NCBI GenBank assembly: GCA_964016885.1
Contig: OZ024756.1
Span: 4,216,001-4,280,000, forward strand
Origin: Eledone cirrhosa
Lineage: Eukaryota
Length of the DNA: 64,000 nt
Reading direction: 5' to 3'
Below are positions 236-61,461 of this stretch, piece after piece. The stretch's first letter is position 1, and the number at the start of each line of letters is the position of its first letter. A program made the translations under genes and the position numbers. Below the pieces are notes generated by a model that was not told the DNA's origin, did no database searches, and saw nothing but the letters and a program-made list of their open reading frames with translations.

Positions 236-602
236 ATATAAGAACAAAAGCTGGTTAAAAGAGTTCCATGTATTTTATTAGGCGCAATCAAAAACAAATA
301 TCATCATGCAATAATATTTGTGTTTTCATCAGATAAAACAGGAAGATATGTTGATTTAAAACTGCACTATCCACAAGTGTTTTTTAACCTTCATATCATG
401 TCTTCCTGTTTTATCTGATGAAAACACAAATATTATTACATGATGATATTTGTTTTTGAAATGCGCATAATAAAATACATGGAACTCTTTTAACCATCTT
501 TTGTTCTTATATATTATGTATACTCCAGTCCTACAAACTGTAGAGTGCTTCTTATCCGATATCTGCATTGCTTTATTGTACTACAATAAAACTCACCTCC
601 TA
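236..602 (+). mobile_element. Short HHR-bearing PLE pLTR/retrozyme-like unit with 5' inverted arm, in (TA)n
   Basis: 236-346 is an inverted copy of ~400-515. Flanked by (TA)n on both sides. Same family as 52686-53017. Confidence 0.75.
409..475 (+). ncRNA. Type-I hammerhead ribozyme
   Basis: ttttat-CTGATGA-aaacacaaatat...atatttgttttt-GAAA-tgcgca-TA-ataaaa. Stem I 6 bp, long stem II, palindromic stem III. Confidence 0.85.
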
Positions 603-1092
603 CATATATATATATATATATATATATATATATATATATATATATATATATATATATATATATAGGTGTATATGTATATGTGTATGTGTGTGCGTCCGCG
701 TGCGTGTGTGTGCGTGGGTGTGTAGACATGACTGTGTAGTTAAGGAGTTTATTTGTGTCCCACTGCGGGTCGTTTTGAAAACACATGCCTTCTACTATAG
801 GCTCGGGTTGACCAATACCTCGTAAGTGGAATTTAGTTAACCGAAACGGCAGAAGACTGTCATGTATGTATCTATGTCATTTTGTATGGATATATATATA
901 TATATATATATATATATGCATACATAATGACATAGATACATACACCACACACATACATATACATATATATGTGTGAGTGTGTGTGTTTGTCTGTTGTGTA
1001 TATATATGTATATATAAATATATATATATGCGTGTGTGTCTGTTAACCCGATTTTCTCTCCCTCTCTCACTCGCAATCTAGAGAGAAACAAC

Positions 1093-1185
1093 TAGAGAGA
1101 GTGAGAGAGAGAGAGAGAGAGAGAGAGTGAGAGAGAGAGAGAGAGAGAGAGAGAGAGAGAGAGAGAGAGAGAGAGAGAGAGAGAG
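1093..1185. repeat. (GA)n microsatellite
   Basis: Direct reading. Confidence 0.95.
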
Positions 1186-3261
1186 CCAGTTGTTAGATAA
1201 TGACAAGCAGGCGGAATTCCTCAGCAGCCACAGTAGCAGCAGCAGTTAAGATGTCCATATAATAGAAAAGAAAAAAGAAATATGATGCATTTATCACGCA
1301 GTTCTTTTACTGGCAATCTAGATTTGTTGTCCAGATGTTGCATTAGTCGTTTTGCCATGTGTTCTTACACAAACACACTTCAACCTTTGCTCTCTAGCTC
1401 GACGAATGCTTTCGATATTAACAGTGTCGGAAGCGATATGAAAGAAGAATGGTGTATGAATATTGCCTACTGGGCTTGCAACTTATTTGCGAGCTTATGG
1501 TAGCTAACTTAACACTACCCTTCCCTAACCCTATTATAAACTCACAAAAACTAATCCCCTTTCAACAAGTTTCCTTTTACGAACAAATTTTTTCACACCC
1601 AATCACTCACACATTGATAATCATGAAAACATTTCTCACACATACATCCACACACACACATACACACACGCACACACACACAGTCAAACGCACACGCGCA
1701 CACACACCCACAACCACATTCACACCCACATAAACGCATACATACACTAAGAATGACGTAAACACGCTCACATGGCACATATATATACATATTCAAAGAC
1801 ACCAACACATAACCACAACTAAGCATACATAACAAGTATACACATGCACAAGATATATATATATATATATACACACACACACACACATATATATATATAT
1901 ATATATATATATATATATATGTGTGTGTGTGTGTGTGTATATATATGTATGCATATATATATATATATATATATATATATATATATATATAGCGAGAGAG
2001 AGAGAGAGAAAGAGACAGAGGGAGAGGGAGAGGGAGAGACAGAAGGGGAGGGAGAGAGAGAGGGCGGGGAGAGGAAGGAGAAAAAATGGTGGGTGATATA
2101 AAGGGAAAAAAAGGTAATGTAGTCAGATTTATGTAAGTAATAAATACTCACACAAGTAGACAAGAGCAGGGCAAATGAGAGCTAGGAGACCCCTCATATA
2201 TATACATATATATATATATACATATATATATATATATATATATATATATATATATATATATATATATATATATATATATATATACATATATACATACATA
2301 ACAAATGAGTGTTGCAGTAACTAGACACATTTATAGAAAACAATACAAGCATATATGCATACATGCCTCGATATTGATACGAAGTCACTCCAGAAAACTA
2401 TATGTATATATATGTATATATATATATATATATATATATATATATATATATATATATATGTATATATAAATGTACATATATATATAAATGTATATATATA
2501 CACACACATATAAATATATATGTATATATATATATATATATTTTAAATATATATATACATAAATATATATAAATATATATATATATATATATGTATATAT
2601 ATATATATATTTATGCATATATATATATATATATACATATATATATATATATATATATATATATATATATATATATTTATGTATATATATATATATATAT
2701 ATATATATTTATATATTTATATACGTACATACATATATGTATGTATATATATATATATATATATATATTTATATATTTATATACGTACATACATATATGT
2801 ATGTATATATATATATATATATATATATATATATACAGAGAGAGAGAGAGCGACATATTTACACACACATATACATATATAGATACACATATATACAAAT
2901 ATAGGCAAAAAAATATCCACCCACAGATTGCATGCCCAGATGTAAAGGTTTAAGGAACTGAAGTTGGAATATAATCGCAATCACAGACAGCCTCTTATTT
3001 GCACTTAAAACTACCCGAAAAACCTACCATACACAGAAGCTGTATATAACCGTGGGTGTTTGTTACTTTAGTTTCAGTGAGAGAAAGAGAGGGTGAGTGA
3101 GAAAGAGAGGAGAGGGGAAGAATTTGAGATAGGCGCGATATGTGTCTTACTAATATGTATAGGGTTATGCTCATATATATATATATATATAAATATATAT
3201 ATATATATATATATATATATATATATATATATATATATATATATATATATATATATATATA

Positions 3262-3760
3262 TCAAGAAAGAAGAATGACACGGTTTGCTATACAATAAGG
3301 GCTTTTATCACATTGCTGACAATTGTTTCTCTGAACTTGTAGGTCTAGAGATCGCTACCCGCCTGTTTCTGCGTCAATCGATCACCAATACATAGTTATA
3401 ACAAGTCAATTCATCAGAGCTTGCGAGATTGAATGATTCATTCTCGCAAGCTCTGATGAATTGACTGGTTATAACTATGTATTGGTGATCGATTGACGCA
3501 GAAACAGGCTGGTAGCGATCTCCTACACCTACCAGTTCAGAGAAACAATTGTCAGCAATGTGATAAAAGCCCTTATTGTATAGCAAACCGTGTCACTCTT
3601 CTTTCTTGATTTATCATTACTCCAAGCGCGTGCTCGCAGCATCCCAATAGAAACGCCTTGTTGAGTCAAACTTAGCCAAGCGTTGATACTATCCACTATT
3701 CGGAGTACCCTAACTGGACTACATCTAAGTGGACTGCATATAACAATAATTTGTTATCCC
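3262..3760 (+). mobile_element. HHR-bearing short element with 5' snap-back arm (centre ~3435), in (TA)n
   Basis: 3262-3434 is the reverse complement of 3436-3610, and the unit continues to 3760. Monomer copy at 58550-58900; related fragment at 61700-61860. Confidence 0.8.
3450..3556 (+). ncRNA. Hammerhead ribozyme with expanded stem II
   Basis: gct-CTGATGA-~80 nt closed by actgg/ccagt-GAAA-caattg-TC-agc. GUC cleavage triplet and palindromic CAATTG. Mirror copy on the minus strand at ~3315-3420. Confidence 0.65.
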
Positions 3761-58900: not shown

Positions 58901-58925
58901 GTATATATATATATGTATATATATA

Positions 58926-59260
58926 TTTCGTTTCTGAATTTGTTTAGCAAGATTCTTTATCTGAAAACGTGTGTTGAAACCGATATTGTTATACTTTGGG
59001 AGGGTCATGTGGCCAATAAGAAACACACGCACCAGTGCTTTCACTTCAATTTATTATAATAAATTTATAAATTTAGGAATTTATAAATTTCCGGCTTGTT
59101 GGTTGGTTCCACAACCAGCTGATTGTTTATATATTGTCACAGTTCTTTCGTCACACATTATGTGACCTCTTCAGTGACTGAGGATTCTTTTCTTTGTTTT
59201 TGTGCCTCTCCTTTGTTCTGTCCTACGCCATCTTGTTTTTTCAAAAAACAAGATGGCATA
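58926..59260 (-). mobile_element. Solo pLTR of the 14.9-18.1 kb PLE family with 18-bp 5' hairpin
   Basis: Matches 14861-15185. HHR-like motif at ~59136-59179. Terminal palindrome tacgccatcttgtttttt c aaaaaacaagatggcata. Confidence 0.85.
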
Positions 59261-61314
59261 TATATATATATATATATATATATATATATATATATATATA
59301 TATATATATATATATATATATATATATAGCGATTTCAGTAGTTTTGCTACTACACACGTTATTCCGTGTATGTATTTATGTGATATGTCTGTATATCTAA
59401 ACGGGAGAGAGTGTGCGTATATATATATATATATATATATATATATATATATATATATATATATATATATATATATATATATATATATATATATATATAT
59501 AAGTATTCATTATATGTGTGTATGGTGTGTATATGCGTGTGCAAGCCAGCATGTTTGTGTAAATGTGTGTGTGTGAAGCACGGTGTGGGTATTTTTGACA
59601 GAGAAACTAGATACGCTTTACCTACATATGCTGCATAGATTTCTCAACGAACTATGTTCCAAATTGTTAATTGGCCGGAAAAAACTATATTTGTGGATAT
59701 TTCTACATGTTCTGTATAAACCTTTAAGAGGTTTCTCATCTTACGAAAACATCATTTTTTTCCGATGTCCATCACATCTGTTTTTCAGGGAGGTGCTGTC
59801 AATCAATGCACAACCGTATGTATATGTATGTATGTATATATATATATATATATATATATATATATATATATATATATATATATATATATATATATATATA
59901 TATATATATACGTGTGTGTGTGTGTAAATGATAATACATACACGCACACACAAAAAATGCACTCAAACACTAGCATATACGTACAGTTATTTACAGGGAT
60001 ACGCACTTACATATACATATGCACAGACATACATATATTTACATCTATATATATATATATGTATATGTATATGTATATATATATATATATATATATATAT
60101 ATATATATATATATATTATATATACATAGATATATATGTATTTACATACATATACATATATATATATATATGTAAACATATATATTTATATATTTATATA
60201 TATATATATAACATATGTATTATATATATAAATATATATATATATACATATGCGTGTATATATATATATATATATATATATATATATATATATATATATA
60301 TATATATATATATATATATTAGTGTCATTTCCGCGACACTCCCCATGTTGATCAACTCCAGCATGACCAATAACACTTCCTTTACTTCTCTACGACCTCA
60401 CCTCATCCCTCACCCCACCCTCACCCCGATTGCTACCCCCACGCTACTATAACCACCTTTATTATATTCTCCACCCCCTCCCAGCTGCAGCCACAGCTGT
60501 CTTCACATCATCACCACCATCACTATAATCATCACCAACATCACCATCTTCTCGTCACCAGCCATACCAACCATCCCCAGACCTTCCAGAAACAGAGGCC
60601 TATCTTCTCTAAATCGGACGCCAGCGTCATTAAACACGGCGAACAAACATTATGTAATGTTGCATCTGAAATCCTATAATATTTTCGGGATGTTCACGGT
60701 TGGAATACTTTTGGTCATATATCTAGTGACTAAACATCACTCAGCTACCTTCAGATATTTTGGTTTTGGTTAATTGGGGGGACTAAAGAGCCCGTGGTCT
60801 TCTTCGTGATCGGTGAGAGTCTCGGGGGGTGGTTATTGATAAATTCACAGACTTGTTTCGATTGCTTATAACAGTAAACTTCCTGAAAGGAAGCTAACCG
60901 CCATTTTCTAGTGTTAAAATGGACGACAAATTAAGTCTGCCATTTTTATATGTGACATCAATAATGTCCCAGATATTTGAGCAGTGATTATATGTTGAAC
61001 TTGAGTTGTGAAAGTAAGTGACTTAAGTATTTAGGAAGTTCTGCTCACATTACTTAGCTCCAGAGTTCGATTCCCAGCGGAGAGTTGTGTCCTTAAGCAA
61101 GATACTTTATTTCACGTTGCTCCAATCTACTAAGCTTGCAAAAAGAGGTATGGCTCAGTCATTTTGTAAGTTCGAATATAGCCGTTGACTCATTATTGTA
61201 TTCCTAACACAAAGTACCATGGCTCCGATTTTCTCTTCTCCTTTTTGTAGAGGAGATATCGTAAAACTCTGTGTAACGACTGGAAGAAGCTTCAATTTCG
61301 TTATATATATATAT

Positions 61315-61461
61315 AAAGAGTTGGTGTTTCATCATAACATATTTAATAACATATTACATATGTTTCACATATGATCAATAATAGATCGATCCTCGAGCTG
61401 ATCGACAGTGAAACATATGTAATATGTTATTAAATACGCTATGATATAACACTCACTCTTT
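61315..61461. repeat. Short palindrome with HHR 3' halves
   Basis: GAAA-catatg-TA-atatgttattaaata occurs on both strands. Shares agatcga..gagctgatc with the 30.7 kb element. Confidence 0.6.

Follow-up and report, generated by a model that had tools for sequence, protein, structure and literature searches.

We examined a 64,000-nucleotide (nt) stretch of the Eledone cirrhosa genome (assembly GCA_964016885.1, contig OZ024756.1, forward-strand positions 4,216,001 to 4,280,000), hereafter the window, in which Penelope-like elements (PLEs) and small non-coding units related to them recur as head-to-head inverted copies. The window is AT-rich, with 18% of it masked as microsatellite, and contains two broken frames with matches to reverse transcriptase (RT) and GIY-YIG nuclease (15663-17634 and 33909-37180). 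The first belongs to a 5'-truncated coding PLE (14861..17184, minus strand) comprising RT, a GIY-YIG region, a hammerhead ribozyme (HHR) at 15124 and a 59-nt tail; the end of the tail is denoted T1 and its start T2 throughout. The RT frames of this PLE (16496-17215 and 15663-16508) are broken by frameshifts, and 14861-18103 matches RVT_1 with an E-value of 6e-5, under the Pfam cut-off, and GIY-YIG with an E-value of 9e-5. In its best protein match, P0001 (72% identical, source label Octopus vulgaris), a single frame spans the pieces of the RT and the beginning of the nuclease region. Judged by the order of the predicted domains, RT followed by a C-terminal GIY-YIG, 14861-18103 is an endonuclease-bearing (EN+) PLE, an assignment that does not extend to the non-coding units. 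The second PLE (32721-37180, minus strand) is GC-rich and also broken, with RT and weak GIY-YIG matches and an HHR core at 32721; an inverted arm was not detected there.

An initial annotation of the window had listed 11 inverted sites, all of which exist in the sequence. Measured by local alignment (left and right coordinates, matches and the spacer between the arms), arm lengths span 18 bp (59242) to 919 bp (17190) and spacers 0 to 1327 nt, with values of 0, 1, 1, 1, 8, 15 and 21 nt in the seven short cases and of 54, 875 and 1327 nt in three jump cases (346, 17190 and 40985). A fourth site listed as a jump, 55447, proved to be an inversion junction, the arms of which come from non-overlapping parts of the element without duplication. 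Further cases, missed by that reading, were found at 5937, 3832 and 61786 and in two short interspersed elements (SINEs; 22940 and 44045). Clusters of perfect 15-bp arms with a spacer of at most 60 nt numbered 13 in the microsatellite-masked window versus 0 in every one of 30 order-2 Markov simulations of it, a count to be read with the caveat that masking fuses segments and a few of the 13 clusters may be artefacts. A divergence of 0.5-11% between the arms of the inverted pairs makes chimeric reads or a chimeric assembly less likely; CpG decay is weak as proof of age, accounting for 6 of the 69 arm mismatches. A metagenome scan with a family B motif gave 0 matches.

In 10 pairs the arms overlap on the element (nested pairs), and in 7 of these (346, 3435, 5937, 17190, 40985, 57040 and 61385) the tail is found on one arm only: one arm stops directly at (TA)n, whereas the other runs 32-151 nt further. 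This one-sidedness of the outer ends, T1 on one side and T2 on the other, is our main addition to the earlier reading, and the extension is the PLE tail as portrayed in the consulted portions of two reports (PMC3846280, PMC8557442). The family A insertion at 346 (236..600) consists of a T2 arm (236-346, minus) and a T1 arm (347-600, plus) with an HHR at 415 and a tail of ~90 nt; the arms align over 236-346 and 401-512 (107/111 matches, spacer 54), and the junction shows an ATG microhomology beside one mismatch. At 3435, a family D palindrome (3262..3761) joins a T2 arm (3262-3434) to a T1 arm (3436-3761) bearing an HHR core at 3454, the GAAAC-AATT-GTC cut motif and a 151-nt tail (3262-3434 against 3436-3609, 167/173 matches, spacer 1). 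The inverted arm of the coding PLE at 17190 (17185-18103, plus) ends at T2 straight into (TA)n; it pairs with 14920-15857 (914/919 matches, with 18 nt also deleted from the right arm, spacer 1327), and the junction at 17170-17184 is a templated 14-17 nt duplication of the start of the mirror arm, consistent with two priming rounds. The family B insertion at 40985 (39690..41316), with a CAGAAGA..GAAA core, combines a T1 arm (39690-40982, minus; tail 39690-39773) with a T2 arm (40983-41316), aligning over 39774-40107 and 40983-41316 (329/334 matches, spacer 875). Right-arm tails of ~99, 32 and 100 nt characterize the palindromes at 5937 (5867..6107; 63-bp arms, spacer 15), 57040 (56923..57195; 116-bp arms, 107/116 matches, spacer 8) and 61385 (61315..61562; arms of ~62-63 bp, 55/62 matches or 89%, spacer up to 21, non-canonical core), respectively. 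A 13-14 nt motif common to the tail of 61385 and to short solo elements by (TA)n (32239-32252, 53222-53234 and 61503-61516) is possibly a tail signal.

The other nested pairs are the palindrome at 30672 (30534..30810; 138-bp arms, 125/138 matches or 91%, spacer 1), with a CTGATCA..GAAAC core in each arm and no tail, the family A palindrome at 52851 (52688..53015; 163/164 matches, spacer 0, centre ATAT), in which both arms end at T2 and HHRs lie at 52784 (minus) and 52919 (plus), and the family C complex at 53777 (53318..55058). The last is a palindrome (260/274 matches, spacer 15, 2-nt microhomology CA) whose left arm crosses an inner TA run and reaches 53318, together with a distal tandem unit at 54551-55058; the complex possibly represents one T1/T2 insertion interrupted at 54105-54465. 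The interrupting segment, situated between family C units, carries a minus-strand CTGATGA core at ~54207 without GAAA and is possibly a later insertion into the inner TA run. Derivation of the left arm and the distal unit from one template was considered and dropped; private changes counted by eye (~9 left, 6 right and 3 distal) form a star.

In family B, T2 lies at a common position, with arms at reference 39773-39775 in 3/3 copies; in family D it lies at 3609 and 3614, and in family A three arms mark it, as does the point where the tail begins on the fourth. Junctions were judged on the assembled sequence, and for family D raw restriction site-associated DNA (RAD) reads and contigs from four runs were surveyed from the 3435 centre on. 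In X9, which derives from a sample other than that of X1 and X2 (together one sample, possibly the one behind the assembly), 138 raw reads pass from the element into (TA)n at 3607 and 271 do so at 3614, with an about threefold loss of depth across T2, from ~698 to 218. The flanks are mostly (TA)n, where target site duplications (TSDs) are unreadable. A fold-back copy of a complementary DNA (cDNA) started at T2 cannot hold the tail, and for a fold-back copy of one started at T1 nothing accounts for a stop at T2; a second event anchored at T2, either priming or cleavage, would therefore be required.

Three insertions from two families (3832, 55447 and 61786) have a different layout, in which an inverted body starting at T2 is joined to a tail-only arm. 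In the family B mini-insertion at 3832 (3786..3881), 48 nt of inverted body are joined over CTT to the last 51 nt of the tail; in the insertion at 55447 (55100..55535), also from family B, an inverted body (reference 39775-40121) is joined to the whole tail (reference 39772-39690); and in the family D insertion at 61786 (61694..61864), 92 nt of inverted body (reference 3614-3523) are joined to the last 78 nt of the tail (reference 3688-3765) with a 1-nt microhomology. Compared with longer family copies, the template gap between the arms is ~2 nt at 55447, ~38 nt at 3832 and ~75 nt at 61786. Because the arms cover different parts of the template, neither can be a copy of the other. Twin priming of L1 generally gives such a product, with a non-overlapping inverted 5' part and an uninverted 3' part, and, as far as the assembled junctions can tell, this is the geometry of the three insertions; the 10 nested pairs lack it, as their arms are not non-overlapping and adjacent on the template. 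Family F (5394, 30371 and 62457) was tried as a further non-overlapping case and rejected, two of its copies having the same boundary. Given the tail on one arm only in 7 of the 10 nested pairs and the three non-overlapping pairs, fold-back of one cDNA unaided, which the initial annotation had proposed for the whole series, is insufficient.

The PLE identity and the head-to-head polarity of the series were borne out, and inverted 5' arms are in print for PLEs (PMC3846280, in the section consulted). Wherever polarity is readable, the 5' ends are central, in 12/12 events. Seven of these assignments follow from a canonical CTGANGA..GAAA core or an open reading frame (346, 3435, 17190, 52851, 53777 and 59242, with 61786 assigned by family homology), and five from non-canonical cores only (30672, 61385, 40985, 55447 and 3832), of the type CAGAAGA in family B and CTGATC in 30672 and 61385. 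The core motif scan found no HHR core at 57040 and 5937. Canonical cores, with cleavage predicted from the motif only, are present in families A, C and D and in the coding PLE, and a strict HHR descriptor gave 6 matches in the window versus 1 in 10 simulated windows. Rfam reported no hammerhead at the gathering level in the window, nor one among the matches listed by E-value (150 of 364), where sub-threshold microRNA (miRNA) models falling on microsatellites or palindromes predominate. For 6 HHR candidates, folding as single strands yielded no significant z-score (-0.04 to -1.33); polarity thus rests on motifs and homology. Inverted arms are optional, with 9 of the 17 core matches outside any detected inverted pair. 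Minimal and variant HHRs are known from PLEs, including pairs on opposite strands 100-700 bp apart, according to the relevant part of PMC4209133. Within 13666-13994, the 5' end of a minus-strand SINE meets that of a plus-strand, family C-like HHR fragment (core 13866); two tandem SINEs follow.

Microhomology at the junctions is 0-3 nt where readable. At 3435 the central TGA is not family sequence, and contigs (12 and 11, agreement ~0.7) carry family D past 3437 for another ~25 nt in the upstream direction, as far as a TA run, like window copy 58557; the centre thus lies ~25 nt inside the 5' boundary of the family, which indicates that the palindrome was formed per insertion. Inversion joints of family D among those listed are 3449/3523 and 3457/3591, in one contig each; joints 3589/3715 in X9 (4 reads) and 3494/3479 in X2, with strand not given, were left out of all counts. 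The earlier premise that a spacerless centre implies fold-back does not hold for 52851, where the self-complementary ATAT falls on the 5'-terminal base of copy 346 (between the two loci, each arm pair differs at 4-6 sites), so that two cDNAs annealed end to end give the identical sequence; 52851 is the weakest support for fold-back, and a TA run bounding the family may account for its centre.

Fold-back is most directly, and strongly, indicated at two other loci. The PLE 3' fragment at 59242 (58928..59260, minus; HHR at 59174, T1 end) carries an 18-bp nested snap-back arm (59243-59260; 17/18 matches, spacer 1), which mirrors the cDNA end, lies at a distance of ~250 nt from T2 and finishes with TA at the (TA)n target; here, if not for the whole series, the self-priming suggested in the initial annotation is supported. 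The second is the palindrome at 22940 (22801..23094), the element being a putative SINE by its B-box-like motif and ATT-type 3' end, with 136-bp arms (135 match) and a 7-nt loop closed by a 2-bp GA/TC pair that is predicted from other SINE copies. Past the SINE tail, one arm goes on into 13 nt of host flank, which none other of 17 SINE 3'-end motif matches shares, and rejoins through AT a 17-nt TSD present at 22805 and 23078 and nowhere else. Target flank would be absent from an RNA template, making DNA-templated copying of target-attached cDNA the simplest reading. A tail-to-tail palindrome had been entertained for 22940 and was rejected, the query having been antisense. Another SINE, at 44045 (44009..44098), shows an inverted 5' arm of only 36-37 nt (33 matches, spacer 17) and may be a fold-back or two separate SINE pieces. 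Both 59242 and 22940 appear to be snap-backs of the R2 type, in which, in the text available for PMC11371274, the 3' end of the cDNA self-primes through ~2 bp and then joins the target; inverted duplications associated with L1 are comparable in the consulted part of 10.1101/2024.12.14.628481. With the cleanest fold-back of the window in a SINE and cDNA snap-back published for R2, the palindromes are not the PLE-specific signature for which they had been taken; the SINE case, R2 snap-back and L1 inverted duplications together suggest that fold-back is a general feature of insertion by target priming.

Polarity, the T1/T2 outer ends and the three non-overlapping pairs are read directly from the sequence, and work on a PLE protein in vitro describes cleavage and extension of both strands, RT starts at both tail ends and a predicted dimer (PMC11167929). 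We consider it somewhat probable that PLEs and their small non-coding derivatives insert into (TA)n by priming at both target ends, one at T1 and one at T2, with the 3' ends of the cDNAs joined by microhomology and fold-back likely where spacers are short. The endonuclease would cut both (TA)n strands, as a relative does in vitro, and both 3' target ends would prime RT. Should the T1 cDNA stop within the tail, end joining would yield a non-overlapping pair (3832, 55447 and 61786); should it pass T2, its 3' end could prime on antisense sequence, probably by fold-back in cis at spacers of 1-21 nt and by a jump or annealing in trans at long spacers. The sense copy made by fold-back, extended by RT or by a host polymerase, would in turn be caught by the cDNA started at T2 on the opposite target end, which would place the end of the mirror arm exactly at T2; where a second cDNA is lacking, a short snap-back would be joined straight to the target, as may have happened at 59242 and in the SINE at 22940. 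More tentatively, and with a confidence that stops a little short of even, the twin priming might be programmed, a dimeric RT-endonuclease priming both target ends at two tail sites and fold-back providing the sense homology that captures the second end.

Several observations weigh against priming at both target ends. The base is small, 14 PLE-like events in one window. One-sided deletion of older palindromes could yield the same non-overlapping product and is the main rival explanation for it, the 1-3 nt microhomology of all three such pairs being compatible with either route. Among the nested pairs, 30672 and 52851 are tail-less and 53777 is ambiguous, its three units forming a star without diagnostic pairing. 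For the T2 exits of family D, RAD reads over-represent few loci, divergence past 3626 contributes to the depth drop, and the survey left out T1 (3751-3880); the 2 opposite-strand joints among those listed in the four runs are too few for a spectrum. The excess of spacers of at most 21 nt over the expectation of independent truncation (7 of the 13 T2-anchored events; crude binomial P of 0.03 to 3e-5, by assumed length), which counts in favour of the model, is biased by ascertainment, since short palindromes are self-evident and non-overlapping pairs need a second family copy in the window. Because (TA)n targets mask TSDs and flank read-through, fold-back remains conjectural at the T1/T2 palindromes, and the polarity of family B depends on a non-canonical core that folds no better than shuffles (z -0.04).

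The same data allow other routes. A single T1-primed cDNA might fold back, its copy being trimmed at T2 by the endonuclease or a stop, with the non-overlapping pairs left by later one-sided deletions; the predominance of short spacers, the longer T1 arm in 3/3 long-spacer cases (346, 17190 and 40985) and the strong indications of fold-back at 22940 and 59242 favour it, and the portion of PMC8557442 consulted ascribes the tail to EN-mediated resolution. We nevertheless regard this as unlikely, since T2 would have to be cut site-specifically and three deletions would have to occur separately, one of them stopping within ~2 nt of T2, whereas T2 is an RT start site in vitro in the available part of PMC11167929 and many family D reads simply end there. 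Conversely, two cDNAs primed on both target ends might stop at the same RNA 5' end or site and prime in trans, with no fold-back in cis. Such a route gives the same product sequence as fold-back and accounts for the non-overlapping pairs, and the ATAT centre of 52851 coincides with the 5' start of copy 346; it cannot, however, yield 59242, with its arm unanchored at T2, or the read-through in the SINE, the centre of 3435 differs from the family 5' end, and strand displacement on one RNA would be required, making this explanation decidedly improbable.

Self-priming on an antisense RNA template (Arkhipova et al. 2013) was published for the same head-to-head junction palindromes (PMC3846280, as far as consulted), but predicts neither tail-only arms nor copying of host flank, and in vitro RT works on sense RNA with target priming (PMC11167929); of all the routes weighed we give it the least credence. 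Only slightly more credible, and still very improbable, is that the structures are not insertion products at all but assembly or long-read fold-back chimeras, DNA transposons resembling MITEs (miniature transposable elements with inverted repeats), or palindromes from host repair. Fold-back at breaks is well known in hosts, in the literature as far as consulted, and the read survey, having begun at the 3435 centre, covers no junction-spanning reads. Yet the divergence between arms, the uniform polarity, outer ends on family termini (also in an independent sample), internal layouts that vary within a family (spacer 54 versus 0 in A; palindrome, no arm and non-overlap in D) and the TSD-bounded SINE case speak against it. 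A MITE or foldback DNA transposon was rejected specifically, given asymmetric ends, layouts that differ within families A, B and D, and the unfolded family D sequence upstream of the 3435 centre.

The window also holds repeats of other kinds. Inverted arms of 291 bp (94%) at 3908-4188 and 6545-6835, with symmetric TA ends and enclosing 2.4 kb of nested insertions, resemble an element with terminal inverted repeats and not a PLE. At 4558-5053, 135-bp inverted arms (98%, 4633-4766 and 4920-5053) flank (GT)n and are preceded by a partial direct duplicate of 78 nt, and at 11133-11222 and 12280-12369 old inverted arms (75%) surround a SINE, followed by 45-nt tandem copies of the SINE end. Tandem arrays occupy 7667-9065 (period ~51 nt) and 41851-43817 (period ~115 nt). 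A 239-amino-acid frame at 31504-32223 (minus), which had no Pfam match over the cut-off, presumably resembles the C-terminus of a protein of non-long terminal repeat retrotransposons.

Inverted 5' arms, junction palindromes and the idea of self-priming are already in print for PLEs (PMC3846280), and how PLEs form inverted ends is described as still undefined (PMC8557442), in the sections consulted of either paper. The EN+ PLEs of PMC3846280, PMC8557442 and PMC4209133, taken from the parts available, share with the window 5'-truncated copies with an adjacent head-to-head inverted 5'-truncated copy, junction palindromes, a tail at one end, an HHR near the 3' end and microsatellite targets; they differ in quoted tails of 30-40 nt versus 32-151 nt here and in that the window units are mostly small and non-coding, and a tail-only arm with an inverted body was not found in those descriptions. 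Anolis Poseidon (PMC11167929, main text in part) likewise has two fixed RT starts bounding the tail, cleavage and extension of both strands and AT-rich targets, with HHR cleavage not needed; there, however, neither inverted arms nor the priming of both target ends during a single event is tied to the two sites. L1 twin priming (10.1101/2024.12.14.628481) agrees in non-overlapping arms, 5' ends meeting and microhomology at the joint, but in the window the second primer would sit at the fixed T2 and not at a chance internal match, and most window cases overlap. Unlike R2 arms, which stop early in the excerpted account (PMC11371274), PLE mirror arms in the window usually reach the fixed T2. Literature searches, the scope of which excluded subscription papers and supplements (that of PMC11167929 among them), found neither the twin-site model nor tail-only arms, and a search for Penelope with twin priming returned nothing on PLE mechanism, judged by its listing.

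The structures described here thus represent a known kind of insertion with a testable mechanistic refinement. The T1/T2 ends and tail-only arms give countable predictions, namely mirror arms at T2, a young non-overlapping class and differing alleles per arm. For annotation, such palindromes, several of which drew sub-threshold miRNA matches, are best labelled as derived from PLEs and not as MITEs or miRNA hairpins. In the SINE, cDNA fold-back during insertion has left a clear natural record, which shows that fold-back by itself does not identify a PLE. If the programmed form of twin priming is true, one rule would cover the inverted pseudo-long terminal repeats, junction palindromes, one-sided tail and tail-only arms of PLEs.

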